Part shown: positions 34,356-60,049 of the stretch, piece after piece
Position numbering within the stretch: the stretch's first letter is position 1
How the letters are laid out: each line of letters starts with the position of its first letter
IMG/VR virus record: IMGVR_UViG_3300025383_000001
Span: 2,657-66,656 of that record
Strand: one strand, 5' to 3'
DNA from: a virus
DNA: 64,000 nucleotides
Position numbers and translations under genes: made by a program
The notes under the pieces: generated by a model
Databases searched by the model: none
Told to the model about the DNA's origin: nothing
The model's input: only the letters and a program-made list of their open reading frames with translations

Positions 34356-34358
34356 AGA

Positions 34359-39386: not shown

Positions 39387-39390
39387 GGTA

Positions 39391-40299: not shown

Positions 40300-40311
40300 T
40301 TAATTAGCTCC

Positions 40312-40938: not shown

Positions 40939-40957
40939 TTAATTCTCCTAAGATTAA

Positions 40958-42383: not shown

Positions 42384-42394
42384 TTGGGGCCTCC

Positions 42395-42853: not shown

Positions 42854-43040
42854 CTGAGTTCTCCATTCTATGGTTAAGGTCACTTATTTCCAACTGCGCA
42901 GACAGCAGACCTTTTATCTGTCCACACATAAACTGGTACTCGGCATAGTCTTTGGCTACACCTGCACCTAAACTCTCTTCCAGATGTTTGATCTGTTCAC
43001 CTAGCTTTTTGTGTAGGTGTTCGAGGTATTTATCAATCAT
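42846..43040 (-). CDS. Small conserved protein between portal and GroES
   Basis: DYAEYQFMCGQIKGL; overlapping start/stop codons. Confidence 0.65.
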   Translation of the reverse strand: MIDKYLEHLHKKLGEQIKHLEESLGAGVAKDYAEYQFMCGQIKGLLSAQLEISDLNHRMENSDE

Positions 43041-45535: not shown

Positions 45536-45543
45536 AATTTACC

Positions 45544-47701: not shown

Positions 47702-47811
47702 AGACCTGGTTTGGTAGGTTATATGCTGCCGACTATACCACAAAATGAAAATGGGGTACTACTAGAACCAATGTATGTGAAGCATTAAGAAACCTAGTTT
47801 CCCCCACCAAG

Positions 47812-47934
47812 TTATTTTACTTTGAAAAACTCTTTAATACTAGATAGCACTGACTGAACCCAGAACTCATTGATCTGCTGGTAATGCTTAGCCATCTGCT
47901 CTACTTTTTTGTATTGCTCTTCAAATGAAAACAT
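47812..47934 (-). CDS. 40-aa amphipathic peptide (phasin-like?); absent from the ORF track
   Basis: MFSFEEQYKKVEQMAKHYQQINEFWVQSVLSSIKEFFKVK; strong TAAGGAGA RBS. Confidence 0.65.
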   Translation of the reverse strand: MFSFEEQYKKVEQMAKHYQQINEFWVQSVLSSIKEFFKVK

Positions 47935-47952
47935 AATTTTCTCCTTAAGTTT

Positions 47953-47983
47953 TGCTGCAATGCAGCATAAAAGAATTCTATCA
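47953..47983 (-). promoter_or_regulatory. Extended -10 promoter with palindromic operator TGCTGC-N3-GCAGCA over the predicted start site
   Basis: Minus strand TG-A-TAGAAT (47983-47975); palindrome at 47953-47967. Confidence 0.55.
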
Positions 47984-48272
47984 CAAAAATATTATTGGGG
48001 GTATGGCACCAAATAAAAAAGGTATGGGGGGTGTTTTCTAGGATTAAATTAACAACATGTTGTCAGGAGATTAAGGCCCCCCTATGCACAAGAATAGATT
48101 GGGGTTAGTTGGTACTTATTGCCGGTTTTTAAATTTACATAATCTATTGTGCACATTATTGTGTATAGGTGTTGCCAGGGTCCTCTTTACCCTATCTTGG
48201 GGGCTGGGGGTAGGTAGGGTTCATATAACCAGCATTTAAAGCCCCTGGGAGCAGGTTTTATTAGACAGATAG

Positions 48273-48333
48273 TTTACTGCTGGGATTTGTCCTGGTGTAT
48301 AATGTACTTACCAGGTAGCAAGGTGTTACCTGG
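48273..48333 (+). promoter_or_regulatory. Promoter (TATAAT 48298-48303) followed by inverted repeat CCAGGTAGCA-AGG-TGTTACCTGG
   Basis: Perfect -10, weak -35 (TTTACT); 10-bp-arm palindrome right after the predicted +1. Confidence 0.5.
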
Positions 48334-48365
48334 ATTTAACCTAACCTTAAATGGGAGATTGTAAA

Positions 48366-48989
48366 ATGGAAAATACTTTCCAATTATCAGAAGTACAAAA
48401 CGACATGTTCACCAATATTGGCGTAACATTCGCAGTAGCTGAACTAGATGCTGATGCAGCACTGGAAGATTTTGCCAGGGCAGTAACAGTAAAGAATGAC
48501 CAGGGAGAGGATGTCGCATCCTATGATTTATGGGAATCAGGCATGGCAGTAGTGAAACAGGCTTATGCTGGTAAGAAAGGTGTAACCCTGGATTCAGATA
48601 CTATCAAGTCTATGGTTAAACGATTCTATCGTCGCCTGGAAGAGATGTATGGTTTAACTAAGCCAGCTAAGCCCAGCGCTGAAGGTCAGAAAAAAGCAGC
48701 GCAGCGCACAAAAGCCCAGGCAGCATTAGATGAACTCAAGTCTAAATCTTATGATGAACTCCAAGAAGAGATGGCTAATCTATTGGCTAAGCCCAGTACT
48801 GAAACCCTTGCTGCTGCTGGTAAGATCGCCAAGGCTATCAAGGCTAAAGAAAAGGATGATGTTAAAGACCGTATGACTGAGATCAAGGCTAAGCAAGCCG
48901 AAGTAGCTAAGCTAGCTAAACAATGCCTGGTGGAAGATATCCTGGAAGAATGCCTGGAGCTCTTAGCCGCTAACATCACTATTCAATAA
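48366..48989 (+). CDS. Early hypothetical protein, paralogue A
   Basis: GGGAGA RBS; shares KKAxQRxKA..SKSxxELxxEMANLLAxP with 49923-50501. Confidence 0.75.
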   Translation: MENTFQLSEVQNDMFTNIGVTFAVAELDADAALEDFARAVTVKNDQGEDVASYDLWESGMAVVKQAYAGKKGVTLDSDTIKSMVKRFYRRLEEMYGLTKPAKPSAEGQKKAAQRTKAQAALDELKSKSYDELQEEMANLLAKPSTETLAAAGKIAKAIKAKEKDDVKDRMTEIKAKQAEVAKLAKQCLVEDILEECLELLAANITIQ

Positions 48990-49035
48990 CCTATAACCAA
49001 GAAAGGATGCCCAGGGAAACCTGGGTATTTTAATT

Positions 49036-49272
49036 ATGCCTAGTTTAATTCTCAGTCCGGCCTATGGCCGGGATTATAAATCGAAGGCCGAAGTACTGTC
49101 GGCTTTCAATTCTGAAAAGGATTTTATTATCAATTCAGTAATGCCTGGTTATGCTGGTCTATATTGTAGTAAGCGGGATTTGTCCAGCTTTATTCGAGAT
49201 GGGTTTACTCATATTGAAATTAGATACCGCAAAATGACCATGTGCATTTTCCTGGATATACGCAAACTATAA
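49036..49272 (+). CDS. Small early protein
   Basis: LSPAYGRDYKSK..KDF..IRY pattern. Confidence 0.65.
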   Translation: MPSLILSPAYGRDYKSKAEVLSAFNSEKDFIINSVMPGYAGLYCSKRDLSSFIRDGFTHIEIRYRKMTMCIFLDIRKL

Positions 49273-49297
49273 CCAGGCAGCACCCAGTAGCACTAAG

Positions 49298-49326
49298 TCC
49301 CCAGGCATAGACCTGGGGATTTTTTT
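49298..49326 (+). terminator. Intrinsic terminator
   Basis: TCCCCAGG-CATAGA-CCTGGGGA-TTTTTTT. Confidence 0.8.
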
Positions 49327-49475
49327 GTCCCCAGTAAAAAATTAGGGAACTGGTTGTAAGCGACGCACTAGCCCGCAGGACAAAGTGTCACAATGCCACT
49401 ATGTCTTTCTCGGTTAAGCTCTGTAGCAGAGCTTAATATAATTTTATCGAGTTGTCAAGCATACCGAGTTTATAT

Positions 49476-49777
49476 TGTTCTAGCAATGTTCTACCTAATG
49501 TTCCTTGTAAGTCCTTGATTATAAAGGAATGTTCTATTGTTCCTAATGTTCCAAAAATTACTTTGCCCAAAATAATTTTACCGAGTGACAAAGACCCTCT
49601 ATGCAAGTGCAGATTGCACATGGTGAAATCAAATGAAAAAACCCCCTCGTAGTAAATTAAATATATAGAACAATAGAACAATATAAATAAATAACCCGCA
49701 AAGCCTTTATCTATAAGGCTTAGAGAATGTTCCATCACTTAGAACATTATAAGAACAATACCCTATTTTCTAGAACA
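49476..49777. repeat. Inverted array of TGTTC/GAACA units with an IHF consensus site (candidate pac/cos-like site or origin)
   Basis: Six TGTTC at 49476-49551, five GAACA plus one TGTTC at 49668-49777; TAAGTCCTTGATT (49508-49520) matches YAANNNNTTGATW; AT-rich and non-coding. Confidence 0.7.
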
Positions 49778-49791
49778 TATAGGACAAGTCC

Positions 49792-49820
49792 TTGACATTT
49801 CCCACCAAGTGTGCTATACT
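49792..49820 (+). promoter_or_regulatory. Strong early sigma70 promoter
   Basis: TTGACA, 17 bp, TATACT with TG extension. Confidence 0.88.
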
Positions 49821-49922
49821 GTATTTGTGAGTCGGAAATTGTTTTTGGTTCACATCAGGACAAAGTGGCAGAGTGACACTAAGTCCCAAACCCTAAACCT
49901 CACTCTATTGGAGATTGTTATT

Positions 49923-50501
49923 ATGGCAACAAAAACTGTAGTTAAAACGGCAGAAATGCTATCTCAATTTGACGAGCAAGAAAAGGCTCGTTTGGTATCT
50001 GCAACCCTTGCAATGGACTCTGGTGAAGACGAAGTTGCGGAAGCAATCGCAACGATTGCTCGTGAACTCGGTAGCAAACCTAGTTGGGCTCGCTATTCAA
50101 TGGGTCGCATTATCTTCGTTGAAACCCTCGAAGCACAGGGCAAAACCGAGGACGCTATCAAGTCCAAGTGGAAGCGGGTTTGTCGTGACTCTGCTATCAC
50201 TATTCCTGATAGTGATGACCCGCAAGCCAAGAAAAAGGCAGAGCAAAGGGCAAAGGCTCGTGCTGTATTTGAGAGCAAGTCCGACTCTGAACTAGAAGCG
50301 GAAATGGCAAACCTCTTGGCTCAACCTACTCTCAAGCGTATTGAGGAAGCCAAGAAACTTGGCAAGGAACTTGAGCAACGGCAGAAGGACGCAGGCAAGG
50401 ACATCAAAGCAGAACTTGCAGAACTCCGCAAGGCTATCCGTGACAAGGTCGCACTCATTGAGGACATTGAACAACTGCGTGAAATCCTCGACCAACTATA
50501 A
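49923..50501 (+). CDS. Early hypothetical protein, paralogue B
   Basis: GGAGA RBS, ATG 49923; paralogue of 48366-48989. Confidence 0.75.
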   Translation: MATKTVVKTAEMLSQFDEQEKARLVSATLAMDSGEDEVAEAIATIARELGSKPSWARYSMGRIIFVETLEAQGKTEDAIKSKWKRVCRDSAITIPDSDDPQAKKKAEQRAKARAVFESKSDSELEAEMANLLAQPTLKRIEEAKKLGKELEQRQKDAGKDIKAELAELRKAIRDKVALIEDIEQLREILDQL

Positions 50502-50522
50502 CTCAACCCGCAGTCCCTTTAT

Positions 50523-50551
50523 ACCCCGCCTAGTGCGGGGTTTTTTTATTT
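50523..50551 (+). terminator. Intrinsic terminator
   Basis: ACCCCGC-CTAGT-GCGGGGT-TTTTTT. Confidence 0.85.
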
Positions 50552-50552
50552 T

Positions 50553-50581
50553 CATGCCATCATGCCATCATGCCATCATGC
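50553..50581. repeat. Tandem repeat (CATGCCAT) x3.6
   Basis: Direct reading of the sequence. Confidence 0.9.
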
Positions 50582-50726
50582 GGACAAAGTGGCATCTTGA
50601 CACTATGTCTTTTATACCCCCATTATTTTTTATGGGAACTGGCTCGACGAGCGACGCACTAGGGAATTCGTTAGCATTGGGGACGAGATTTGGACTTTTT
50701 GGACTCCTGTAAGCTAGGACAAGTCC

Positions 50727-50755
50727 TTGACATTTACCACTAGATGTGGTATACT
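50727..50755 (+). promoter_or_regulatory. Strong early sigma70 promoter
   Basis: TTGACA, 17 bp, TATACT with TG extension; shares TAGGACAAGTCCTTGACATTT with the 49792 promoter. Confidence 0.88.
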
Positions 50756-50835
50756 AATAGAGTGGGAATTCGCCTACAACAACCAAACGACAAAGTGTCA
50801 CTATGCCACTATGTCCCAACCAAACGGAGTCAAGC

Positions 50836-50994
50836 ATGACAAGTAAAGAACAAGCCCAACTAACAGGCACGCTACAAAAACTGCTAACCCTTTGCCTCAA
50901 ATATCCGACCGCAGAAAACATTGCTCTCGCCAAAGAAGTAATGAAGACAATCAATGTAGTCGGTCTTCAATCCGCAGACAAAGTGGCAGAGTGA
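50836..50994 (+). CDS. Small early protein
   Basis: GGAG RBS after palindrome 4; stop codon lies inside palindrome 5. Confidence 0.6.
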   Translation: MTSKEQAQLTGTLQKLLTLCLKYPTAENIALAKEVMKTINVVGLQSADKVAE

Positions 50995-50998
50995 CACT

Positions 50999-51301
50999 AT
51001 GTCCAAACTCAAACTAACCTTCGAACCCGCAAGCCAAGTGCCACGCACCCACATCAGTCAGTCTTACTTGTGTGTTTCTCGTGTATCACATGATTGTGAT
51101 GTTCATGTAGAAGCAAGCCGAGCCGACTATCTCAAAGCAAACAATCTCCGCATGGTTTGCCACAAGTGTGGCGACGCACTAGCGACGCTAGAGTCCAAAC
51201 GCAAAGCAAGCATGGTTCAGATTCCGTATTCCAAAGGTGCGTATCAGTATATCCACAACCCCGACGAATTACGCTTTACTAACCCAAAGAGGACAACATG
51301 A
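50999..51301 (+). CDS. Early protein with Cys/His cluster
   Basis: CHKCG..PYSKGAYQYI..NPKRT; ATG lies inside palindrome 5. Confidence 0.6.
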   Translation: MSKLKLTFEPASQVPRTHISQSYLCVSRVSHDCDVHVEASRADYLKANNLRMVCHKCGDALATLESKRKASMVQIPYSKGAYQYIHNPDELRFTNPKRTT

Positions 51302-51465
51302 TGACCAAAGAAGAAGCCGACGCACTAATGCGTCTAACCGCCTACATGCTAGACGAGGATAAGTTAGCCGAATACAAGGGCTCTTTCCGTCAGCCAAACA
51401 ACGATGTAGAAATGCTCAACGATTACTTGTTGGGTCTTGATTCAACAGGGAGTTATCCAAAATGA
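51301..51465 (+). CDS. Small early protein (54 aa; absent from the ORF track)
   Basis: GAGGA RBS; overlapping start/stop codons on both sides. Confidence 0.5.
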   Translation: MTKEEADALMRLTAYMLDEDKLAEYKGSFRQPNNDVEMLNDYLLGLDSTGSYPK

Positions 51466-51686
51466 CCTACACATTCAAACCTCGCAGTCGCAAGAACCTA
51501 ATCGAGCAAGCCAATGCTCGTGCAATATCTACTCGAATCAAGCAGATGGCGACGCTTGAAGAAAAGCAGCAGCTTGTCGTTGAGACCAACCCTTTCTTGC
51601 ATATATTTGGCAAGCAACGCTTGGCTCAGGGTCATCTTGATTACAGCACTTGGCTTGACCGCATTTACATCGGGAGACGAAAGTGA
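51462..51686 (+). CDS. Small early protein
   Basis: GGGAG RBS; ATGA coupling. Confidence 0.55.
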   Translation: MTYTFKPRSRKNLIEQANARAISTRIKQMATLEEKQQLVVETNPFLHIFGKQRLAQGHLDYSTWLDRIYIGRRK

Positions 51687-51874
51687 AAGACTACCCGCCT
51701 TTCAGCGTCATGGACATAGCGATGGTCAAGGCTTGGAATTTCTGCATGGAATACGATTCGCACTCAGGTCGTGAAGTAGAACGCATGGGTGCAACCTACC
51801 TAAAAGAAGGCTATATCGAGGGCTTTCTTGCAGGCTTTTCACACAGGCTCGTAGGTGATGATGAAAATAGTTAA
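51683..51874 (+). CDS. Small early protein
   Basis: GGGAG RBS; GTGA coupling. Confidence 0.5.
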   Translation: MKDYPPFSVMDIAMVKAWNFCMEYDSHSGREVERMGATYLKEGYIEGFLAGFSHRLVGDDENS

Positions 51875-52037
51875 GTTATATCGTCATCCTGAAAAGCCTG
51901 AGTTCTATCTATTAGTCAAGCATGGTGAGATGGGACTGCTTGTGAATTACCCTATCGACAAACCTGATCGGAAACGACAGGCTCGGTGGTTTTCTTTAAA
52001 CGAAGTATATATAGATTGGATAAGGGAGTTTATATGA
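51861..52037 (+). CDS. Small early protein
   Basis: AGGT RBS; operon packing. Confidence 0.5.
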   Translation: MKIVKLYRHPEKPEFYLLVKHGEMGLLVNYPIDKPDRKRQARWFSLNEVYIDWIREFI

Positions 52038-52189
52038 TGTATTTATTCGGAGTAGTAATTCTTTTGACAACGATTATGGTTTCATCTGTTGCTTGGATAT
52101 GGGTAGACACACCCTTGCTTGCAATCGCTGGACTTGTCATATCGTCGTTTACCCTCGGCTTCATTCTAGGGGAGAACAGTAGTGACTGA
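52034..52189 (+). CDS. Small membrane protein with two TM helices
   Basis: AGGGAG RBS; hydrophobic. Confidence 0.55.
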   Translation: MMYLFGVVILLTTIMVSSVAWIWVDTPLLAIAGLVISSFTLGFILGENSSD

Positions 52190-52364
52190 GCATTACAAAG
52201 GGCAACGCATTGACGAATTGTTAGACATGATTGTCCGACTGCAGTATGCACTAGAAGAGAATAGAGATAGCGTCGACAGCGACGAGGTAGTTCGCCTCGT
52301 TGAATCAGAAGCTACCCTTGCAATTATGAAAGCAAAACTAACCGCACTACAAGGAGAAAAATGA
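52182..52364 (+). CDS. Small early protein
   Basis: GGGAG RBS, GTG start. Confidence 0.5.
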   Translation: MTEHYKGQRIDELLDMIVRLQYALEENRDSVDSDEVVRLVESEATLAIMKAKLTALQGEK

Positions 52365-52510
52365 ATGACAAGAAACTGAATGAACTCATGGCATTACTAA
52401 ACATGGCAAGCACTCGTGGGATTACCAAAGACCACATGAGATTGCTTGTTATTCAAGCACAAGAAATTGTGCGTCAACTAAAGAAGGAGAAGTTAAATGG
52501 CAAGACCTAG
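52361..52510 (+). CDS. Small early protein (49 aa; absent from the ORF track)
   Basis: AAGGAG RBS; ATGA coupling. Confidence 0.5.
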   Translation: MNDKKLNELMALLNMASTRGITKDHMRLLVIQAQEIVRQLKKEKLNGKT

Positions 52511-52790
52511 AAAAGCAAAACCCATGCCTGTCGAAGGCAACGCATTAGCACTAGACCTTAAAAACCCACAAAGTTTTGAAGGTGTCACCGACCCTCGCCA
52601 CGCAGTAGGCAGAACAAGCCGTAGTGCAAGCGAGGCATTCAAAGACGCAACCTATGCACAGTCAATGTGGAAATGCGAGTCTGATTTTGAATATGGAGTC
52701 CGCTTTGTCAGCGACATGGTGGTCGGTATGTTCACAGTCTTTATGTATTTACTAGTCCCTGTGTTATTAGCAGTTTGGTTATTTAGATAG
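52497..52790 (+). CDS. Small protein with C-terminal TM helix
   Basis: AAGGAG RBS; RSASEAF motif; stop codon overlaps palindrome 6. Confidence 0.6.
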   Translation: MARPRKAKPMPVEGNALALDLKNPQSFEGVTDPRHAVGRTSRSASEAFKDATYAQSMWKCESDFEYGVRFVSDMVVGMFTVFMYLLVPVLLAVWLFR

Positions 52791-52838
52791 ACAAAGTGTC
52801 ATTGTGACACTAAGTCCCTTTATTACGGAGTCAATTAA

Positions 52839-53540
52839 ATGATGAAACCTCAAGCATACGAAGCATTGCAAAAAGCAAAGGCACTATTTCGCCACCCAGC
52901 AGAAGTCGTGCAAGATGATATTCCATCTGAAGCAACACCAATCGAGCCTATTCGCAAACCACGAGTAGTCCTTTTACCACCCGATGCACCTAAGTTTGAC
53001 CAACACTCAATGAAAGAGGAACACAAAAAGATGGAACAAGCCAAACAAACCGAACTAGAAAACACCCTCGAAGAAATGGGGCTTACAACCCCAGCCATGA
53101 GAGAGCACAAAAAACAAATCGACAAGTATGCCGATATGTCTGTCACCAAAGCGTGTGAAGTTTGCCTTGCCAAAGGCATCAAGCAACCCGCAAATATTGC
53201 TAAAGAAACAGGCAAGAATGTAAATCAGATTTACACCGCCTTGTGGCATATCAAGCAACGCAAGAAAAAAGCCAAGGCTCAAGCCAAAGAAGCAAAGCGT
53301 TATGAGTATGACATGAGCAAGCCAAACCCCAAATTTGTAGCACCCAAGTCGTTGGACAAAGTGCAAGCCGATTGGGACAGAGAGCCGACTGCATGGGAAG
53401 ACGCACACAGGGTAGTCCTGCATGACAGGGAGTGGTATGAAGCCGAGATTGAAAAGCTAGCGACGGCTAACACCGACTTGCTTATCCAAATTCAAGAACT
53501 CAAAACCATCATCAAATACTTGGAAGGTAAATCCAAATGA
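52839..53540 (+). CDS. Early protein with possible HTH
   Basis: KQPANIAKETGKNVNQIYTALW resembles an HTH; C-terminal coiled coil. Confidence 0.55.
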   Translation: MMKPQAYEALQKAKALFRHPAEVVQDDIPSEATPIEPIRKPRVVLLPPDAPKFDQHSMKEEHKKMEQAKQTELENTLEEMGLTTPAMREHKKQIDKYADMSVTKACEVCLAKGIKQPANIAKETGKNVNQIYTALWHIKQRKKKAKAQAKEAKRYEYDMSKPNPKFVAPKSLDKVQADWDREPTAWEDAHRVVLHDREWYEAEIEKLATANTDLLIQIQELKTIIKYLEGKSK

Positions 53541-54487
53541 CATATACACATCAAGGGTATAACTGTGCCCGCATTCCAGCACTCGCAAACTATGCTCAAG
53601 CAAAAGAGCATTACCAATCCGTTGCACCCATTCGTGGGAGAAACCCCGAAGTCAGACCTCTTGGTAAGAACCGCCGCTTTACATGGTTCACTATCAACGA
53701 GAAGCACACGGTCTTGCCCGAATCTGATGACCCACTCGGTTCATTCGACATCGCCTATATTCTGCGTTGTTGGAACACCGACTTGATTACATTTCACAGT
53801 AATGGTGACATTGTTCTCAAGGATACTAGTTGGCATAGCCCGACGACGATGGGTTTCATGACCTTTTCATTGCAGGCTTTCGGTTCAATCATATCCAAGC
53901 GAGGCAAATGGTATTTCCAAAACAGCAAGGGGGAGAGTTTTCTTTTCCACAATGAAATGACTCTACGACAAAACGACGATGGGTTTGTCCGACCCAAAGA
54001 AGAAGTTGTAGAGAAGCGATACCGACTGTCACGCAAAGCGATGAACTCTATTCGCAAGAAATACAAGGGCTTTATCGAATACGGGAAGAACGCTTTGTCT
54101 ATCGACCCGACTGTCACAAGGCTTGAAGTTGCCGAGGCTAATCATGGCTTGTCATTTCAAGACACACATCTTGTGCCTTATTACTCGTGGAATAGCCCCA
54201 ACACCGACGGGTCTAACCGCACAAAGCTTTTTCAAGCATTGGATAGCTTTAATCAGTCTGGGGATTTAACCCTAGCTTACGAGTTGCTTTGCTATGTAGC
54301 ACAGTCGGTCGGTCGGTATAACTACCATAAGCAAATCATTGTGTGTGAACCTAATTGGTTTGTAAACAGAATGACCGAAGCAATGAAGTATCAATTCGCC
54401 AAAGAATTGTTTGTCGAAGAAACAGTAGAGAAGGGTGTCGTCTTTCATGATGACAATATTAAGTATGTAGCAAGAAGTGCGAAGTAA
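53537..54487 (+). CDS. Hypothetical early protein
   Basis: 316-aa ORF with ATGA coupling. Confidence 0.65.
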   Translation: MTYTHQGYNCARIPALANYAQAKEHYQSVAPIRGRNPEVRPLGKNRRFTWFTINEKHTVLPESDDPLGSFDIAYILRCWNTDLITFHSNGDIVLKDTSWHSPTTMGFMTFSLQAFGSIISKRGKWYFQNSKGESFLFHNEMTLRQNDDGFVRPKEEVVEKRYRLSRKAMNSIRKKYKGFIEYGKNALSIDPTVTRLEVAEANHGLSFQDTHLVPYYSWNSPNTDGSNRTKLFQALDSFNQSGDLTLAYELLCYVAQSVGRYNYHKQIIVCEPNWFVNRMTEAMKYQFAKELFVEETVEKGVVFHDDNIKYVARSAK

Positions 54488-54552
54488 GGGACAAAGTGTC
54501 ATGGTGACACTATGTCTTAGTTTTAAATCTAACTTAAATAAAGGAAACGGAA

Positions 54553-55647
54553 ATGTCGGAAGTATTATTAAATAAATTCTCTACCCTCAAAGAAGCAGAG
54601 GATATGATTGTGTCTTGTGGTGCTGGCGCAACCTTTCACCTTATGGGCGAACCAGGTGTAGGCAAAACCTCAATGTTCCGCAATATTGTTGCAAGAACTG
54701 GCTATAAAGGTATTTACATTGACGCACCAAACATCGAGCTTGGAGAATTGGGAATCCCAATCCCTAACCACGAAACCAAAACTACTCGCATTTATCCAAA
54801 CGAGCAATGGGGTTTCCACCTAAACGAGCCGCTTGTTATCTTCATCGACGAGTTCACCAAAGCCATGCAAGGTGTTAAGAATATGTTGCACCCAATGCTT
54901 AACGAGCCACGCATGGTTATGGGTATCCCATTGCACGAGAAAACGATAGTCGTAACGGCAGGTAATTACACTACCGACGGTGTAGGCGACACAATGATGA
55001 GCCATTCTCGCAATCGTATCTCTGTGGTCAATGTCAAGAAACCGCACGCAGGCTTTAATCCTGATGGCTCTATTGATGCTGACTCATGGGGTGAATGGGC
55101 AGTCAAGAATGATGTAGTCCCCGAAGTATTGGCATGGGTAAAGAATAACCCTCAAGCACTAGCCTCATACTTAGACCCATCACAGGCTGGCAACAAATAC
55201 ATCTTCAATCCAAAAGAAGCACAGAAGTCTTTTGTGTCGCCCCGCTCATTGGTTCGTGCAAGTAATATTCTCAAGCACAGAGCCGACTGCACAACGACAG
55301 CCATTACTTGTGCATTGGAAGGGACTATCGGAGCACCTGCGGCTAGGGATTTGATGGCATTCGTAGATGTGGCGGATAGCCTACCGACATGGGAAGCAAT
55401 CATCAAAGACCCACAAACCGCTACCGTGCCGACTAGTCCAGCAGCCTTGTGCTTACTTGCTTTTAGTGCAGTAAATAGAGTTGACCGCAACACCATCTCT
55501 AAATTCTTTGACTACCTCAAGCGGACTCCAAAAGAGTTGCAATCTGTCTTCTGCTTAACAGGCATGAAGAACGACGAGAAGAAAAAGACATTCTTAACCA
55601 GCCAAGCATTTACTGATTGGATGCGTGAGAACCAATACTTGTTCTAA
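54553..55647 (+). CDS. AAA+ ATPase (MoxR/CbbQ-like)
   Basis: GEPGVGKT Walker A, IFIDEF Walker B, TAGN, SRNR Arg finger, SPRS sensor. Confidence 0.85.
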   Translation: MSEVLLNKFSTLKEAEDMIVSCGAGATFHLMGEPGVGKTSMFRNIVARTGYKGIYIDAPNIELGELGIPIPNHETKTTRIYPNEQWGFHLNEPLVIFIDEFTKAMQGVKNMLHPMLNEPRMVMGIPLHEKTIVVTAGNYTTDGVGDTMMSHSRNRISVVNVKKPHAGFNPDGSIDADSWGEWAVKNDVVPEVLAWVKNNPQALASYLDPSQAGNKYIFNPKEAQKSFVSPRSLVRASNILKHRADCTTTAITCALEGTIGAPAARDLMAFVDVADSLPTWEAIIKDPQTATVPTSPAALCLLAFSAVNRVDRNTISKFFDYLKRTPKELQSVFCLTGMKNDEKKKTFLTSQAFTDWMRENQYLF

Positions 55648-55694
55648 ACGACAGAGTGTCATGGTGACACTTTGTCCTAACCTAAGGAAACTAT

Positions 55695-55979
55695 ATGAAA
55701 AAGAAAATGACAGACGAAATGTTTGAACAAGCAAATCGTCTTAAAAACGACATTGGCACTTTGCTAGAAGCGTCTGATGTAGAACTTGGATTGATACTGC
55801 CTGTGTTGATTGCAATCACTTGTGAAGCGGCGATTATCCAAGCTGAAATGAAACCGCACGAGTTTCTACGCTCAATCACAAATGGTGTATGTGCAATGAT
55901 TGACTTATCTCAGGAAGTTGAGGAAGAAGAAGATGATGAACCAACCGATGGAAGGAATAATATTCAATGGCTAAACTAA
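55695..55979 (+). CDS. Small acidic protein
   Basis: AAGGA RBS after palindrome 8; acidic C-terminus. Confidence 0.6.
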   Translation: MKKKMTDEMFEQANRLKNDIGTLLEASDVELGLILPVLIAITCEAAIIQAEMKPHEFLRSITNGVCAMIDLSQEVEEEEDDEPTDGRNNIQWLN

Positions 55980-57202
55980 CTGCCGAACAACGCATCGAAA
56001 GATGCCATGTGCAACTTATGAAGCACAGGAACTTTGCCCTGTTCTCAGGCTTATTTATGATTGGCAAGGTGACTGTTGCCGAAAACACCAATCATGGAAC
56101 TGCGGCGACTAATGGTGTTGATGTGACCTATGACAGAGCATTCGTCGATAGGCTCAACGATAAGCAACTAGCCTTTCTTATACTGCACGAGAATATGCAC
56201 AAGGCTTATCGACATCTTGTCGTATGGGAAAGCCTGCATCGCAAGAATAGGATGCTCGCAAATGCGGCGTGCGACTATGTCATAAATTTACAGATTCGTG
56301 ATTATGACCCTAGCGAATACGATACGCAATTCCCAACCGACGAGTTCGGCAATCAGATGGGTTTGATTGACGAGAAGTATCGTGGCATGGACTCTGCCCA
56401 AGTATTCAAGCTACTCGAAGAAGAACATGGCGGTGGTGGCGGTGGTGGCGGTGGTGATGGTGATGGAAAAATCTTTGTCGTAGGCGATGGCAACGGATTC
56501 GACCATCACGATTGGGAAGATGCACAAGAACTATCCGATACCGAAAAGGAAGAAATAGCCAAAGAGATTGAGTCTGCGTTGCGTCAGGGCTCTATCCTAG
56601 TCGGCAAGCTAGGCGGTAATGTTTCTCGTGAGATAGGCGACATGCTAACTCCCAAAGTAGATTGGAAAGAAGCGTTGCGTGATTTCGTCAAGTCATCCAC
56701 GCAAGGCAAGGAAAAGTCTACATGGAAGCGACTGCATAAACGCTATATCGGTATGGATATCGTGATGCCCTCACAATATTCTGAAAAGGTAGGCGGCATT
56801 GCTATCGGTATCGACACATCAGGCTCGATTGGTTCGGAAGAACTTAATCAATTCTTATCTGAAGTTAAGTCTATCTGCGAAGAAGTATCACCCGAACAGA
56901 TTGATTTGCTTTATTGGGATACTCATGTGGCTTCTAGAGAAACATATATGCAGAACGAGCTTGCAGGTCTGGAACAAAACACCAAGCCAGCAGGCGGTGG
57001 TGGGACTGACCCGACTTGTGTGCCTAAGTTTATGGCGAAGCATGATATCAAAGCCGAGTGCCTTATCTTTCTGACCGATGGATATATCGGGCGACAAAAC
57101 CCAAGCGACTATTCAAGCCTGACCATGCCTGTGTTGTGGTGCATCAAAGGCAATAGTCATTTTAACGAAGCCGTAGTTGGCAAAGTAGTTCATGTTGAAT
57201 AA
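55967..57202 (+). CDS. Metallopeptidase plus VWA domain protein (DUF2201-like)
   Basis: TAATNG, LHENMH (HExxH), NAACDYVIN; MIDAS DTSGS..GGGT..LTDG. Confidence 0.88.
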   Translation: MAKLTAEQRIERCHVQLMKHRNFALFSGLFMIGKVTVAENTNHGTAATNGVDVTYDRAFVDRLNDKQLAFLILHENMHKAYRHLVVWESLHRKNRMLANAACDYVINLQIRDYDPSEYDTQFPTDEFGNQMGLIDEKYRGMDSAQVFKLLEEEHGGGGGGGGGDGDGKIFVVGDGNGFDHHDWEDAQELSDTEKEEIAKEIESALRQGSILVGKLGGNVSREIGDMLTPKVDWKEALRDFVKSSTQGKEKSTWKRLHKRYIGMDIVMPSQYSEKVGGIAIGIDTSGSIGSEELNQFLSEVKSICEEVSPEQIDLLYWDTHVASRETYMQNELAGLEQNTKPAGGGGTDPTCVPKFMAKHDIKAECLIFLTDGYIGRQNPSDYSSLTMPVLWCIKGNSHFNEAVVGKVVHVE

Positions 57203-57212
57203 GGAGAAACAA

Positions 57213-57443
57213 ATGATTGAAACCAAAATGCCGAAAGGCAGAGCAAGAGATGGAAAGATAAACATCAGCCTCAACCCTGAGACTGTTGCTCAACTCGTCG
57301 TAGTAAAAGATGATATCGGAACTGCCCTGGGCTTTTCCGTATCGTATTCCCAAGCAATACAACACCTCATTAAGCATTTCAACCAACGGACAGAGTGTCA
57401 AGGTGACACTTTGTCCCAACCAAACGGAGAGTCAAATGAATAA
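57213..57443 (+). CDS. Possible ribbon-helix-helix protein
   Basis: KINISLNPETVAQL..SYSQAIQHLI; AAGGAG RBS; 3' end contains palindrome 9. Confidence 0.5.
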   Translation: MIETKMPKGRARDGKINISLNPETVAQLVVVKDDIGTALGFSVSYSQAIQHLIKHFNQRTECQGDTLSQPNGESNE

Positions 57444-58323
57444 CTCAATCAACATCTCATCATCAGCCATGCTAGTCGAACTAAGCATCCGTAGTTGGAC
57501 TGCACGCAAGTTGGACAAGCGTGTTTCTAGCGAAGTAGATACGGCTAAAGGGGCAAAGACCAGAGTGGTAAACGCAAACAAGAACCTACTCGCAGGCACA
57601 GGGGTTCTTGATACCATCATCAAGTATGCCGCCAATGCTCGTGCATGGCACAACGCACAAACTCTGCCGTGGTCTGACAACGGCTCTCGCTTGTTGCCTG
57701 TATCTAACTTTGTAAATTACAAAGAGCAACTCAATGTGCTTGAGCAGAACTACACCGCATTGGTCGGTAAGTTTATCACCGCATACCCAGACCTAGTTAG
57801 TGCGGCTGCGTTTCAGTTGGGCGACTTGTTCGATAGGTCAGAGTATCCCGACGCAAGCAAGATAGCGACGAAGTTTAGTTTCAATTACAGTTTCTTTCCT
57901 GTGCCGACTGCTGGCAGTTTTCTTCCCGACCTAATCGAAGAAGCCAAGCGTGAAGTGCAAGACAGTTGCAGTAAGGCTTACGACGAGCGTCTTAACAATG
58001 CAATGCGTGAAGCGTGGGATAGGTTGCATGATTGTCTTATTCGTATGAGTGAGCGACTAGCACCAGCAACACCAAGACCATTAAAGGATGGGACATTTAC
58101 TGATGTTCCTGTATTCCGTGACAGCCTTGTCGAGAATGCGTTAGAGTTAACAAGCCTCCTAACACATTTTAATCTTACGAACGACCACAATCTTGACCTT
58201 GCCAAGCAAGAGTTGTATCAGGCAATCAAGAACCACGATGCCGACTCGCTACGCAAAAACGCACAGGCTCGTGAAGTAGTCAAGGCAAAGGTAGATGCGA
58301 TTCTTAACAAGTTTAATTTCTAA
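57436..58323 (+). CDS. DUF3150-like protein
   Basis: WTARKLD..TLPW..RLLP..LGDLFDRSEYP pattern; usually accompanies AAA/VWA genes in phages. Confidence 0.6.
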   Translation: MNNSINISSSAMLVELSIRSWTARKLDKRVSSEVDTAKGAKTRVVNANKNLLAGTGVLDTIIKYAANARAWHNAQTLPWSDNGSRLLPVSNFVNYKEQLNVLEQNYTALVGKFITAYPDLVSAAAFQLGDLFDRSEYPDASKIATKFSFNYSFFPVPTAGSFLPDLIEEAKREVQDSCSKAYDERLNNAMREAWDRLHDCLIRMSERLAPATPRPLKDGTFTDVPVFRDSLVENALELTSLLTHFNLTNDHNLDLAKQELYQAIKNHDADSLRKNAQAREVVKAKVDAILNKFNF

Positions 58324-58332
58324 GGGGTAAGT

Positions 58333-59202
58333 ATGATAGCAATAGATAAATCAGTCTTAAAGAAAGAATACCGAGACGCAGAGGTTGACCAAATGCTGGT
58401 TAACTTTGCCGACTTGGTAGGCTTTGCCAAGCCATGTTGCAATTTCGTGTTAGACGATAACTGCGTGGACAGGGAATGGGTAGTCGACGAGCAGAACAAA
58501 AGTCTCAGCAAACACTATATCCGTAGGCTCAGGGTGTTTGAGAACGGCGAGGAGTTGGGCGACATAGGTGTGTCTAGACGCTACACAGGCGGTTCGTCTG
58601 ACATGGTCTACAAGGTTCGAAGTTTTCGTATTGTCAAAGAACGGGGCGACCGCAACGGAGTGACGGCTAAAGATATTAAGGTTGCTCTCCGCCACGCTAA
58701 AAAAGTATTTGTTTCTAGAGAATCAGCAGAACTTATAGCCCAAGTAAAAAATGCAGTAGACAGCCATGTTAATTATCTAGAAAGCCGAACATGCCATCAG
58801 TTGCAATGGACTATGGATAGTATGGCGACTAGTGTAGACCTTGCTTTGCACGCACAAGAAGCTAGGCGAAAGGGGGAGCAAGTAGTTTCCGTTCCTTTGA
58901 GTATGGTCAGGGTTAATAATAAAATAGAAGACCACGATGCGGCTTGCGATAGATACAGAGAAGCTAAGTCTTTGTTAGATGGTATACAAAATGGCAAAGG
59001 CTATGGTGTATTTTGTCGCATTGACAATAGCTTAGTTGTGTATAGCTATTCTACGAACACGGTTAAGCGATACGCTAGCTTTGAAGAATTGCCCGAACCC
59101 ATACAGAGTAAGTATGCAATGTTCAAGGTTCTCGACAAAGAAGAGCCACACGAAACAATCGGATGCAAGTTTGATGAGGGCTACTTTTATGTGGTAGAGT
59201 AG
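58333..59202 (+). CDS. Hypothetical protein
   Basis: 289-aa ORF with AAGGGG RBS. Confidence 0.65.
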   Translation: MIAIDKSVLKKEYRDAEVDQMLVNFADLVGFAKPCCNFVLDDNCVDREWVVDEQNKSLSKHYIRRLRVFENGEELGDIGVSRRYTGGSSDMVYKVRSFRIVKERGDRNGVTAKDIKVALRHAKKVFVSRESAELIAQVKNAVDSHVNYLESRTCHQLQWTMDSMATSVDLALHAQEARRKGEQVVSVPLSMVRVNNKIEDHDAACDRYREAKSLLDGIQNGKGYGVFCRIDNSLVVYSYSTNTVKRYASFEELPEPIQSKYAMFKVLDKEEPHETIGCKFDEGYFYVVE

Positions 59203-59328
59203 TCTCTGACTTCCGTGGGAATTTTTGATTGGGTTTGTAGAACCTAGTATGATGCGAAGCAAGCCACGGCTTATGCCGACAATCTCCCCCTAGCGTAAGT
59301 AGGATACGCAATCTACTTGACCTACACC

Positions 59329-59352
59329 AAGCCACCTTCGGGTGGCTTTTTT
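59329..59352 (+). terminator. Intrinsic terminator ending the early operon
   Basis: AAGCCACC-TTCG-GGTGGCTT-TTTT. Confidence 0.9.
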
Positions 59353-59412
59353 ATTGGGACAAAGTGTCACGATGACACTATGTCTTCGGGTTAACACCTA
59401 CAAAAAAACTTC

Positions 59413-59440
59413 TTGCATTTATCTGGGGAAGGACTATACT
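59413..59440 (+). promoter_or_regulatory. Sigma70-like promoter for the DNA metabolism operon
   Basis: TTGCAT, 16 bp, TATACT with an upstream A-tract. Confidence 0.55.
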
Positions 59441-59469
59441 GTGTCAATAATTATATTAAAGGATGCAGT

Positions 59470-59772
59470 ATGACCCCCGAATCAAAGGTCAAAGCTCAAG
59501 TAGTTAAGCTACTTAAAGAGAATGACATATATTACTTCTTTCCAGCCACGCACGGTTATGGTCGTTCGGGTGTGCCCGATATTGTCTGTTGCTACAATAG
59601 CCAGTTCCTAGCCATAGAATGCAAAGCAGGCAAGGGCAAAACAACTGCACTCCAAGAAAAAGAAATTAAAAAGATTCGTGATGCGGGTGGACATGCCTTT
59701 GTCATCAACGAGACCAACATTCACACACTAGCCTTGTATTTATTGGGGGGACAAGATGACGACCGATGCTAA
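59470..59772 (+). CDS. VRR-NUC domain nuclease (Holliday junction resolvase-like)
   Basis: TPESKVK..GVPDI..AIECKA..TALQ..GG. Confidence 0.88.
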   Translation: MTPESKVKAQVVKLLKENDIYYFFPATHGYGRSGVPDIVCCYNSQFLAIECKAGKGKTTALQEKEIKKIRDAGGHAFVINETNIHTLALYLLGGQDDDRC

Positions 59773-60049
59773 AAGTATGACCAGTTCCAAAGAAATGAAC
59801 AACGGTATTGAAATTATTTTAAAGCGGATGGAAACCCACCCCGAAGAATTTTATGGGGAAAGCAAGAAGTGGGCATTCATGTATAAAGAATATTTCCGTG
59901 ACATTATGACTGAGTCCGAGAAAGCCGCCATTCACGAGAAGCTGAAGGAAATCCGTCGTGCGGAATTAACTTATCAAGTAATGCGGACAATGACAGAAGA
60001 GCCTGAGTATGAATACAAATGGGTGGCTGACACTAGGGTTAAATACTAA
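59756..60049 (+). CDS. Hypothetical protein
   Basis: ILKRMETHPEEF motif; operon packing. Confidence 0.55.
   Translation: MTTDAKSMTSSKEMNNGIEIILKRMETHPEEFYGESKKWAFMYKEYFRDIMTESEKAAIHEKLKEIRRAELTYQVMRTMTEEPEYEYKWVADTRVKY

Follow-up and report, generated by a model that had tools for sequence, protein, structure and literature searches.

Ten copies of an imperfect 27-bp palindrome lie at the promoters, terminators, and gene junctions of the early genes of this phage, and the replication genes carry none. We consider the chances about even that they form the operator array of a phage-encoded regulator, by which early transcription is blocked or insulated in a stoperator-like manner, with the product of the first early gene as a candidate binder. 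The regulator would most probably be lineage-specific and encoded by the phage itself.

Distribution of the Palindromes

The window analyzed here comprises 64,000 bp (bases 2657-66656 of a 66,656-bp record). It derives from an uncultured freshwater phage. A pattern scan with GACAAAGTGKCA-N3-TGMCACTWWGTC gave exactly ten copies in the window, at all ten starts named in the original prediction (Table 1). By chance a mean of 0.01 matches is expected, and none of 100 shuffles equalled the observed ten; matches occur on both strands because the pattern is palindromic. The statement that no copies exist elsewhere held for the whole 66,656-bp record, in which the control pattern read backwards had 0 matches.

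Table 1. Palindromic sites and associated features of the window
Feature	Position	Strand	Description
Site 1	49379..49405	none	GACAAAGTGTCA-CAA-TGCCACTATGTC; starts 56 nt past terminator stem of 48366/49036 unit; conserved GGGAACTGG…GCGACGCACTAG motif immediately precedes
Site 2	49859..49885	none	Within P1 5' leader; starts 38 nt past P1 -10 hexamer; ends 37 nt ahead of 49923-50501 ATG
Site 3	50583..50609	none	41 nt past terminator stem of gene 49923-50501; T-rich DNA directly after
Site 4	50789..50815	none	Within P2 5' leader; starts 33 nt past P2 -10 hexamer; ends 20 nt ahead of ATG at 50836
Site 5	50977..51003	none	Spans TGA stop of 50836-50994 and ATG of 50999-51301
Site 6	52790..52816	none	One-base overlap with TAG stop of 52497-52790; ends 22 nt ahead of 52839-53540 start
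Site 7	54490..54516	none	Starts 2 nt past TAA stop of 53537-54487; ends 36 nt ahead of MoxR-like AAA ATPase gene 54553-55647
Site 8	55650..55676	none	Left arm variant, GACAGAGTG; starts 2 nt past TAA of 54553-55647; ends 18 nt ahead of 55695-55979
Site 9	57389..57415	none	Within 3' end (last 18 codons) of ORF 57213-57443; ends 20 nt ahead of 57436-58323 start
Site 10	59358..59384	none	Starts 9 nt past terminator stem closing P2 operon; ends 28 nt ahead of -35 of putative P3
Promoter P1	49792..49820	+	TTGACA-17-TATACT, extended -10 TG, 11/12 consensus matches
Promoter P2	50727..50755	+	TTGACA-17-TATACT, extended -10 TG, 11/12 consensus matches
Putative promoter P3, replication genes	59413..59440	+	TTGCAT-16-TATACT; suggested by conservation in relatives
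Intrinsic terminator, 48366/49036 unit	49295..49322	+	
Intrinsic terminator, gene 49923-50501	50523..50541	+	
Intrinsic terminator closing P2 operon	59329..59348	+	
First early gene	49923..50501	+	192 aa, orphan all-helical family
Paralogue of 49923-50501	48366..48989	+	207 aa; 41% identity over residues ~78-200

Most of the predicted layout was borne out. Each of the three terminators has a site behind it, copies 5-8 contain, overlap, or closely follow stop codons, and sites 4 and 9 are followed by a common ribosome-binding module (ccaaccaaacggag…ATG) with 20 nt to the start codon. The distances between sites 6 to 10 are 1700, 1160, 1739, and 1969 bp, in line with the predicted spacing of 1.2-2.0 kb for sites 6-9. 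The gene-boundary placement needs one qualification, namely that site 9 lies inside an ORF with no clean gap. Five sites mark junctions of the early operon of ~8.5 kb that is headed by P2. P1 is conserved in relatives; P3 was missing from the promoter-scan listing that gave P1 and P2. The two strong early promoters, P1 and P2, are each followed by a site at about +27 to +40, and promoter-proximal sites from the window and its relatives (n = 19) start 33-46 nt past the -10 hexamer. For a repressor, an operator at this position and not over the promoter is unusual. Site 10 is found close behind its own terminator in 10/10 relatives covering the region, even where the terminator sequence is different, and its distance to P3 ranges from 28 to >60 nt among relatives.

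A neighboring palindrome at 49414-49436 with 10-bp arms is perfect in 8 distinct true copies, so perfect palindromes are tolerated nearby. A ninth match to it (L024:2771) had 5 mismatches and was rejected as spurious.

Variation of the Arms

Conservation was assessed over 89 non-redundant sites of the window and its relatives, counts over which are phylogenetically non-independent. Of the 27 columns, ten never vary and another seven are conserved at ≥90%, in phages whose proteins are only 35-80% identical to one another; such frozen columns suggest sequence-specific recognition, more than structure alone. Under a hairpin model, pairing amounted to 86.0% compared with 88.1% in column shuffles, below 500/500 shuffles, and the covariation score was 0.035 compared with 0.053. 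The independent variation of arm positions 5 and 10 noted earlier was seen again. At positions 10/18 the combinations T/A (54), G/A (18), T/C (12), and G/C (2) match independence of the arms, each of which has K as read on its own strand, and at 12/16 there is no strand bias (11 G·T versus 10 A·C). At both position pairs the arms vary independently, the alphabets are reverse-complement symmetric, and pairing is not selected for; the N3 spacer is variable. Judged from these patterns, the anti-compensatory variation fits a dyad-symmetric double-stranded DNA site and not a structural RNA hairpin, which strengthens the earlier preference for a dimeric protein-DNA site. The related claim that there is no compensatory change stands within this lineage but not between lineages, where both arms switch together.

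The arms also obey a rule that had not been anticipated. At positions 4-6, exactly one perfect and one variant arm were found in 75/89 sites. All ten window copies have at least one arm mismatch, as predicted, but this does not extend to all relatives, in which 10/89 sites are perfect at positions 4-6. Where a site is the sole terminator of gene 1, the palindrome is perfect and followed by a T-run, likewise a new finding. The rule demands an extra assumption for a DNA site, either selection against a hairpin or an asymmetric binder. On the transcribed strand, A·A mismatches outnumber U·U (74 versus 20), and at positions 4-6 G·U outnumbers A·C (13 versus 3). CA-rich CCAAC flanks occur on either side of the sites in direct orientation, and spacer position 15 is G in 50/89 sites. 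These strand-specific features would not be predicted by a purely symmetric DNA site and speak against the operator-array reading.

Lineage Switch of the Motif

Twelve related IMG/VR contigs share the motif; each has 8-10 copies, confined in every case to ~10 kb of early genes. In G001 (55.5 kb) 10/10 sites fall within 25458-35192, in G002 (60.7 kb) 8/8 exact sites and one 1-mismatch site within 9315-18562, and in G003 (64.9 kb) 9/9 sites within 36615-46064. In IMG/VR the motif is restricted to this phage group, as homologues of the window's early genes accompany 20/20 motif-bearing loci. The possibility of a host-regulator motif gained nothing from 185,579 bacterial species genomes, in which the strict motif had only 3 single matches, all isolated perfect palindromes with no phage homologues nearby. 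The palindrome therefore appears to be neither a host regulon nor a prophage feature, which we count in favor of an operator array.

More distantly related phages carry different palindromes at equivalent places, that is, after the terminator-plus-GGGAACTGG motif, in the P1/P2 leaders, and ahead of the MoxR gene, again confined to 8-10 kb. Type B, ggACAAACTTAG-N6-CTAAGAATGTcc (…CTTAG-N6-CTAAG…), is present in L044/L045 and four further contigs, and type C, ggACAAACCGAC-N6-GTCGGAATGTcc (…CCGAC-N6-GTCGG…), in L050/L051. A high GC content marks the type-C phages, whose host may well be a different one. An outer GGACAWW module is common to all types including that of the window (type A), and it is imperfect in 20/20 listed type-B/C sites, 17 of which combine an AAA arm with an ATT/TTT arm and 3 have both arms variant. 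The 48366-type gene of types B and C has one site upstream of its promoter. Within any one genome the sites have a common sequence, which changes at all of them together from lineage to lineage. This switch, which was not part of the original prediction, points to a phage-made regulator that may have co-evolved with its binding sites.

Candidate Regulators

Our leading candidate for a regulator that binds the sites is the product of 49923-50501. Its N-terminal half is invariant, one helix is basic (KKAEQRAKA), and the C-terminal helix is long. The paralogue 48366-48989, with its own extended -10 promoter near 48293, shares the K/R-rich helix and is a second candidate, as binder or partner. Homologues of both are present in 13/13 type-A loci covering the region, and in type-B contigs a homologue lies directly behind a site. 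On the negative side, no DNA-binding domain was recognized, the 49923 family had no Pfam or PHROG match, a PDB sequence search gave nothing significant (best, bZIP chains at E ~0.2), and a predicted model of the 49923 product (pLDDT 69) had no Foldseek match.

Between types A and B, the MoxR protein (77-80% identity versus 77-84% among type-A relatives) and the VWA protein (69% versus 67-76%) are as similar as within type A; for MoxR, such similarity speaks against a major jump between hosts. Against type B, gene 49923 reaches only 34-35%, compared with 63-79% among type-A relatives (outlier G002, 46%), and the paralogue 48366 falls to 34-35% from 54-60% (G002, 37.5%). This co-divergence is weak evidence for a role in binding, as other poorly conserved early proteins also fall somewhat, such as 53537-54487 (32-34% versus 40-49%).

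Alternative Explanations

It is unlikely, in our view, that the sites act at the RNA level. The transcribed hairpin would then combine a conserved lower stem (GGACA/UGUCC) with an upper stem that differs among lineages, and would have to contain an internal mismatch, mostly A·A; a lineage-specific protein with a basic helix would bind it to arrest, terminate, or anti-terminate transcription or to repress downstream translation. Parallels are N or Nun on nut boxB and Rev on the RRE. The one-imperfect-arm rule is exactly what a stem in need of a mismatch would give, and the imperfect outer module of all listed type-B/C sites, the strand asymmetry of the mismatches, the conserved helix of both paralogues, and the perfect copies that do act as terminator hairpins agree with it. 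Transcription is certain for seven of the ten window sites, which end 18-37 nt ahead of, or overlap, an RBS-preceded start codon, and RNA-acting elements such as nut sites occupy similar leader positions. However, about one-third of the sites lack pairing at 10/18 and 12/16, where the alphabets are still reverse-complement symmetric, which a hairpin does not explain. Five of the window sites have folding energies of only -5.1 to -7.3 kcal/mol, the mismatch varies among A·A, U·U, G·U, and none inside orthologous site classes, and between L044 and L045 it changes to the opposite arm with the spacer not inverted. Sites 1, 3, and 10 lie behind terminators and a type-B/C site upstream of a promoter, the loop is variable, and no Rfam match was obtained in 47500-60000. 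λ N and HK022 Nun act on elongating polymerase at nut, and the likeness extends to a conserved plus a lineage-specific hairpin part in early leaders that co-varies with a small basic protein; nut, however, acts as RNA at two sites per genome with a 5-bp stem and pentaloop, compared with ten sites of DNA-type symmetry here. Passive hairpins for RNase III-type processing or mRNA stabilization are far less probable. Their positions between genes of a polycistronic early operon, the internal mismatch, reminiscent of T7 internal loops, and the folding of the other five window sites (-9.8 to -15.8 kcal/mol) would suit them, and irregular hairpins likewise separate the early genes of T7. The T7 sites have longer irregular stems and conserve structure rather than sequence; the palindromes fail on both counts, with stems of only 12 bp and a frozen sequence where a structural RNA would drift with compensation. 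A simultaneous switch of all sites and three sites behind terminators are also at odds with passive hairpins. A host transcription factor borrowed to time the early genes, with lineage motifs reflecting different hosts, is quite improbable. A Pfam scan of 59 phage proteins yielded no recognizable DNA-binding protein, and the possible other host of the type-C phages would suit this idea; against it stand the near absence of the strict motif from bacterial species genomes, among which the host may be missing, and its restriction in IMG/VR to this phage group.

Borders of exchangeable gene cassettes, as once proposed, retain a slight basis, although recombination hot spots now seem very doubtful as the function of the sites. 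Site 8 and gene 55695-55979 are jointly missing in L009 and L019, one metagenome contig of a relative jumps from 55647 to 55972, three different genes occur downstream of one site in relatives, and gene 50836 has a site on both sides in the window and L014 alone. Ends of blastn HSPs lay ≤30 bp from a site in 105/303 cases, compared with ~8.5% of the sequence, a test confounded because the sites are conserved islands and similarity ends at gene junctions anyway. Most sites are, however, syntenic between conserved genes, many genes come and go without a site, the most variable stretch (51298-52500) has none, and none of the sites is associated with a recombinase; any exchange between such short conserved repeats would be incidental and not their function. 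It is hardly probable, finally, that the sites serve as parS/OB-like clamp-loading sites, DNA-entry pause sites, or N4-like hairpin promoters for a virion RNA polymerase. In favor, the 3-nt spacer may resemble that of N4 promoter hairpins. No ParB-type or RNA-polymerase domain was found in the 59 proteins scanned with Pfam, which told against the parS-like option of the original prediction. The 2074-aa virion protein is DarB/LPD39-like and no polymerase, the region is already driven by consensus sigma-70 promoters, and a constant polarity of the sites is lacking, since the asymmetry changes direction within site classes. On plasmid RK2, palindromic KorB-OB and KorA-OA operators are dispersed near and far from promoters, as are the palindromes here, and one protein silences several operons, as we propose (PMC11790492). 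KorB is a CTP-dependent sliding clamp of the ParB family and has a site of 13 bp; the present sites are twice as long and obligatorily imperfect.

Comparison with Known Roadblocks and Proposed Mechanism

Among the options raised originally, roadblocks that silence the early region fit best, given the promoter-proximal sites, the site behind each terminator, and the remainder inside operons. In Cluster A mycobacteriophages (L5, Bxb1, TipsytheTRex), repressors stop elongation at up to ~30 dispersed sites, and repressor and motif diverge together between subclusters (PMC9283540, PMC6550527). The likeness comprises many copies of a short motif in small intergenic gaps and at the early promoter, a phage protein thought to stop elongating host polymerase, which we infer here, and co-divergence of motif and protein, here a candidate, between sub-lineages (PMC9283540, PMC6550527). 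Stoperators are 13-bp asymmetric sites bound by a monomer with HTH and stoperator domains, with ~24-30 copies genome-wide in temperate phages; the present sites are 26-27-bp imperfect palindromes whose 5-10 copies are confined to the early 10 kb, neither an integrase nor a prophage copy was found here, and the candidate lacks a recognizable HTH. C.Kpn2I is reported to be an elongation roadblock, a dimeric regulator acting from a palindromic site downstream of its own promoter (PMC6237814), which resembles what we suggest; that system has a single site, a restriction-modification operon, and a protein of a known HTH family.

The proposed regulator would control the part of the genome transcribed first by the host sigma-70 RNA polymerase. 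The 49923-50501 product, alone or with its paralogue 48366-48989, would build up and occupy the sites as a dimer. As a secondary effect the palindrome may fold in the transcript too; it is perfect with a T-run where it is the sole terminator of gene 1, and elsewhere one arm is mismatched at positions 4-6. The bound dimer would halt elongating polymerase at leaders and gene junctions and prevent read-through from unit to unit, so that early expression would be switched off and insulated from the site-free replication genes.

Arrangement of the sites in the early region

A pattern scan with GACAAAGTGNCA-NNN-TGNCACTANGTC yielded exactly ten copies in the window; the mean in shuffled sequence was 0.01, and none of 100 shuffles had as many. 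The complete viral record of 66,656 bp, which has terminal repeats and of which the window covers bases 2657-66656, contained the same ten sites and none in the remaining 56 kb, and a control pattern read backwards gave no match. The two scans confirmed the ten copies of the original prediction. The structural genes (portal, terminase, capsid) are on the minus strand, and all ten sites are located in the plus-strand region that begins where the two gene orientations diverge. Two lie in promoter leaders, five at gene junctions and three (sites 1, 3 and 10) behind terminators, the last as had been predicted. The claims that sites 5–8 touch stop codons and that sites 4 and 9 have a common leader also held; this leader is ccaaccaaacggag.

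Coordinates of sites, genes and neighbouring elements in the window, and of site arrays in related records
Feature	Coordinates	Strand	Remarks
Site array (sites 1–10)	49379-59384		starts 49379, 49859, 50583, 50789, 50977, 52790, 54490, 55650, 57389, 59358
Upstream unit	48366-48989 and 49036-49272	+	terminator at end, then site 1
GGGAACTGG-N6/8-GCGACGCACTAG motif	49339-49372, 50634-50667		beside sites 1 and 3
Second palindrome	49414-49436		directly after site 1
TGTTCTA/TAGAACA arrays	49469-49560, 49660-49790		forward and reverse, respectively
P1	49792-49820		early promoter
P1 unit	49923-50501	+	sole gene; terminator, then site 3
CATGCCAT tandem	50552-50582		between gene-1 terminator and site 3
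P2	50727-50755		early promoter
P2 unit	about 8.5 kb	+	junction sites 5–9; end terminator, site 10 after 9 nt
MoxR-like ATPase	54553-55647	+	P2 operon
DUF2201 VWA/metallopeptidase protein	55967-57202	+	P2 operon
P3	59413-59440		putative replication-gene promoter
Hjc/VRR-NUC-type nuclease	59470-59772		first gene after site 10 and putative P3
Virion-module protein, 2074 aa	9238-15462	-	LPD39 domain, DarB-like antirestriction PHROG matches
Sugar/cell-surface gene cluster	35-2237	+	also at G000:44-1700 (L029)
G001, type A	25458-35192		10 sites; record 55.5 kb
G002, type A	9315-18562		8 sites, 1 more with one mismatch; record 60.7 kb
G003, type A	36615-46064		9 sites; record 64.9 kb
Type B, full record	14305-24498		8 sites; 45 kb
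Type B, fragment			7 sites; 19 kb
Type C, full record	25887-33979		5 sites; 38 kb
L072, possible fourth type	1904-1933, 3984-4013		2 sites; 62.9-kb contig

P1 and P2 are near-consensus sigma-70 promoters, each matching 11 of 12 consensus positions and each with an extended -10 element. The site starts 38 nt past the -10 hexamer at P1 and 33 nt past it at P2. None of the replication genes downstream of site 10 has a site; they encode an Hjc-like nuclease, DNA polymerase A, a PD-(D/E)XK nuclease, an SNF2 helicase and a DUF927 primase-helicase. The first of these genes, assigned by Pfam with E = 7e-6, is of interest because Holliday-junction nucleases of this type cut extruded cruciforms. The 2074-aa virion-module protein is probably an injected polyvalent protein. 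The sugar/cell-surface cluster encodes a fucosyltransferase-like protein, an FkbM methyltransferase, a radical SAM/SPASM protein and two family-2 glycosyltransferases.

Distribution among related phages

The pattern scan of IMG/VR found the motif at 20 loci on 12 contigs, and all 20 loci encode homologues of the early proteins of the window (35-84% identity). In the long records the sites are confined to about 10 kb, and their positions are largely syntenic across relatives. A scan of 185,579 prokaryote species, represented by one genome each, returned three isolated perfect palindromes without phage homologues nearby, and no prophage copy was found. Within that collection the motif is thus not a signal of host regulons and does not belong to prophages. 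A nucleotide search of cultured phages gave no match, and no relevant publication on the motif or on comparable arrays came up in literature searches.

The nearest cultured relatives, recognisable at the protein level only, are by DNA polymerase Rhizobium phage RHph_TM3_14A and Pseudomonas phage KPP25 (35-37% identical). RHph_TM3_14A (L043, MN988472.1) shares the gene order ATPase, metallopeptidase-domain protein, DNA polymerase, RecB-like nuclease, VRR-NUC and SNF2. It lacks the motif studied here and carries a genome-wide GTTACC-N2-6-GGTAAC palindrome, often containing CCTCC/GGAGG. The sequencing runs that contain the window sequence are freshwater metagenomes, and the phage, which appears to be lytic, belongs to an uncultured freshwater lineage.

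Variation within the sites

For the analysis of sequence variation, 91 sites were collected and two exact duplicates with identical flanks were removed; the remaining 89 come from related genomes and are not independent samples. In the alignment, ten columns are invariant and seven further columns are at least 90% conserved; the spacer is variable. With a 12-pair hairpin model, 86.0% of cells were paired compared with 88.1% in shuffles, and 500 of 500 shuffles paired at least as well. Changes on both sides were seen in 3 cells compared with 11.8 in shuffles, and the covariation score was below that of every shuffle. At position 10/18 the counts (T/A 54, G/A 18, T/C 12, G/C 2) match independence if either half-site, read on its own strand, may have T or G; at position 12/16, G·T occurred 11 times and A·C 10 times. 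The predicted RNA stability of the ten window sites was between -5.1 and -15.8 kcal/mol. Rfam (47500-60000) and tRNA scans found nothing. In the alignment, this pattern of variation is that of a protein site with dyad symmetry on duplex DNA, not of a structural RNA. Part of the remaining variation is strand-specific (summed over positions 4-6, A·A 74 vs U·U 20; G·U 13 vs A·C 3), which suggests that the transcript matters as well.

One arm of the palindrome is usually imperfect

At positions 4-6, 75 of the 89 sites combine an AAA arm with a variant arm (ATA, TTA, AGA, ATT and others). Both arms are consensus in 10 sites (22.7 expected under independence) and variant in 4 (16.7 expected). For the association of the arm states the Fisher test gave p = 1.3e-9, uncorrected for kinship. 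The variant arm changes side within the orthologous classes S1, S2, S4, S7 and S9; thus the imperfection is kept and its side is not. Site 3 provides exceptions. Where it has no separate terminator and lies 9-12 nt after the stop codon of gene 1 (49923-50501), it is perfect in 5 of 5 relatives, with a T-run after it; behind a separate GC-rich terminator it is imperfect in 5 of 5. As RNA, the equivalent of site 3 in the related contig L039 pairs along its whole length with the help of three G·U pairs. These exceptions suggest that the perfect palindrome serves as an intrinsic terminator, as predicted from its sequence, and that the hairpin is spoiled elsewhere. Why exactly one arm should be imperfect is not readily explained. 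The asymmetry could arise from an asymmetric binder, e.g. a heterodimer of the products of gene 49923 and its paralogue 48366, or from selection against a transcript hairpin.

In L039, position 10 is C in either arm of all three sites (5464, 5948 and 6594; GTGCCA/GTGCYR vs GTGKCA). This change could be a within-type specificity shift and help to pin down recognition residues. The accompanying changes in candidate proteins (S90T in 49923; K85T and L91V in 48366; none in 49036) are too few to interpret.

Exchange of the motif between lineages

A profile search for distant members of the 49923 family gave 51 representatives, all unannotated, which served as a route to further contigs. Contigs L044 and L045 contain no type-A site; the corresponding places carry ggACAAACTTAG-N6-CTAAGAATGTcc (type B). 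These places are after the terminator plus GGGAACTGG…GCGACGCA, in the leaders of P1 and P2, at junctions inside the operon and upstream of the MoxR gene. The GC-rich contigs L050 and L051 carry ggACAAACCGAC-N6-GTCGGAATGTcc (type C), twice downstream of promoters. When the shared outer module was used for scanning, type B was found in six contigs and type C in two; all other matches were single and non-palindromic. A possible fourth type, GGACATTCCGG-N8-CCGGWWTGTCC, occurs at two sites of the GC-rich contig L072. One of these copies is a perfect ATT/ATT palindrome and is followed by a GGAGATTGTGATG start module, which was also found at genes 48366 and 49923.

All types share the outer GGACAWW, whereas each has an inner module of its own; TGTCA, CTTAG, CCGAC and perhaps CCGG were seen. 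In the 20 sites listed for types B and C the outer module is never perfect: 17 of 20 have one AAA and one ATT/TTT arm, and in 3 of 20 both arms are variant. The P2-leader site has opposite polarity in L044 and L045, with the spacer not inverted.

Candidate for the binding protein

No recognisable DNA-binding domain was detected (Pfam on 59 proteins, PHROGs on 17), and the Pfam scan of these 59 revealed no family of HTH proteins, repressors or integrases. The best candidate for the site binder is the product of gene 49923, the first gene after P1 and site 2, which is present in all 13 type-A loci that span the region. The N-terminal half of this protein is nearly invariant and is accompanied by a KKAEQRAKA basic helix and a long C-terminal helix. 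Its paralogue 48366 has residues ~78-200 in common with it at 41% identity. In the type-B contigs a 49923-type gene directly follows a site, and in type C one detectable family member lies beside the first site; in the L072 locus none was found at E below 0.01.

Identity to the window differs between the early proteins. The MoxR ATPase is 77-84% identical in type A and 77-80% in type B, and the VWA protein 67-76% and 69%, respectively. For gene 49923 the values are 63-79% in type A (outlier G002, 46%) and 34-35% in type B, and for 48366 54-60% (G002, 37.5%) and 34-35%.

Three family profiles (A1, A2, A4) matched a bZIP chain over the KKAEQRAKA helix weakly (E 0.2-0.24); a bZIP-like basic region in the 49923 family is a lead from sequence and not a finding. 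In bZIP-like binders the basic region runs on into a dimerising coiled coil; in the AlphaFold model of 49923 (pLDDT 68.8) breaks separate the basic helix from the long C-terminal helix. A Foldseek search of this model against the PDB gave no match at E 0.001 or better. HMMER, with E values up to 10 allowed, gave no support for an assignment of the family to DUF3102 (Atlas scores 0.79-0.84).

Non-coding elements beside the sites

The 390-bp non-coding stretch from site 1 to P1 contains both opposed TGTTCTA/TAGAACA arrays, with about six repeats each. In appearance they resemble an origin of the iteron type or else a further operator array. Types A and B have similar ATGTTC repeats after site 1. 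The second palindrome reads TTAAGCTCTG-TAG-CAGAGCTTAA in the window and TTATGCTCTG-N3-CAGAGCATAA in relatives. It is perfect in 8 of 8 distinct true copies scanned (a ninth match, with 5 mismatches, is spurious), so perfect palindromes are tolerated outside operons. The window copy has a compensated double change, the opposite behaviour to the main motif.

The GGGAACTGG-N6/8-GCGACGCACTAG motif is kept even in type-B phages. A GCGACGCAC(C/T)AGC unit occurs in tandem in several relatives upstream of the promoter of the 48366-type gene, and the CATGCCAT tandem (about 3.5 copies) was seen in the window only. Types B and C have an additional site ahead of the promoter of the 48366-type gene, where it follows a conserved G-rich stretch, ccctatcttggggggtcggg (L044:4627; L050:5782). 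In type A only decayed remnants of it are present, ~130-160 bp before the 48366 homologue starts in L030 and L033, and none in the window.

Discussion

The original prediction was confirmed and extended as an observation and is supported in part as an interpretation. In the most economical reading, to which we assign about an even chance, the sites form an operator array through which a phage regulator acts on the elongating host polymerase. Such a regulator would act in the P1 and P2 leaders, at junctions within the long operon and behind each terminator, and the outcome would be shut-off and insulation of the early genes. By analogy, the array may work like the stoperators of Cluster A mycobacteriophages, and the proposed elongation block resembles the roadblock by C.Kpn2I (PMC6237814). 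According to PMC9283540 and PMC6550527, stoperator motif and repressor diverge together in Cluster A.

Candidate binder and motif diverge together here as well, with three motif types, 34-35% identity for 49923 and 48366 and 77-80% for MoxR, and in both systems sites occur in intergenic gaps and at early promoters. However, Cluster A stoperators are 13-bp asymmetric sequences in one orientation to transcription with >20 copies genome-wide, whereas the present sites are 27-bp and dyad-symmetric, with 10 copies in the early region only and a weak arm that flips within site classes. The Cluster A repressor combines an N-terminal HTH with a stoperator domain and belongs to temperate phages; neither HTH nor integrase was detected in the 59 proteins scanned here. 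The long imperfect palindrome, the early-only array, the absence of an integrase or prophage copy from our searches and the orphan candidate set the system apart from stoperators and from C.Kpn2I.

The main rival is an operator read at the RNA level, which we consider improbable. The leader position, the strand-biased mismatches and the single imperfect arm fit it better than a simple DNA site. Of the predicted preference for a protein site over a hairpin, the DNA-type symmetry and the pairing below shuffles stand; the strand bias and the perfect copies acting as putative terminators weigh against it. T7-type RNase III hairpins have an irregular stem of about two turns, compensatory change and drifting sequence, in contrast to the 12-bp arms found here. 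The leader position would also suit N/Nun-nut elements, which consist of boxA and boxB, function in the transcript only and lie between early promoters and terminators. Three sites are behind terminators, the symmetry is of DNA type and no Rfam match was obtained. N4-type hairpin promoters depend on a virion single-subunit RNA polymerase, whereas the large virion protein here is LPD39/DarB-like without a PDB polymerase match.

The parS-like loading sites that had been proposed found no support: ParB-parS and KorB-OB systems encode a ParBc, CTP-binding protein, no ParB-family member was detected in the 59 proteins scanned, and their 13-16-bp perfect palindromes differ from the 26-27 bp sites with one imperfect arm. 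Of the proposed cassette borders, occasional exchange at the sites was retained, and it looks like a by-product; the test by blastn HSP ends was confounded. Less probably, the site binder is a factor of the host.

An extension of the operator reading, which we regard as speculative and rather unlikely, is a heteroimmunity-like system in virulent freshwater phages, with a paralogue heterodimer, a two-part operator and an array rewritten per specificity. An orphan all-helical family with a bZIP-like basic helix and coiled coil would bind as a 48366/49923 heterodimer to an operator composed of the universal outer module and an exchangeable inner module. The obligatory asymmetry, with an AAA arm opposite an ATT-type arm, would betray the heterodimer, and all 5-10 operators would be rewritten at each specificity change.

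To our knowledge, good descriptions of dispersed elongation-stopping operator arrays come essentially from a single phage group, the Cluster A mycobacteriophages. If the present reading is true, the array is a second, unrelated design that is palindromic and confined to the early region, and its likely binder belongs to no known family. Because the promoters are consensus sigma-70 promoters and the sites are short, the main predictions are testable in vitro without host culture. The same sequence may have two roles, one as a putative protein site and the other, in its perfect form, as a terminator. The specificity types number at least three, each with every site of the genome rewritten, and they constitute a natural experiment in which a regulator and about ten operators would change specificity together. 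If the heteroimmunity-like system exists, co-occurring phages would silence their own early genes and those of superinfecting phages of the same type, without cross-talk between types.
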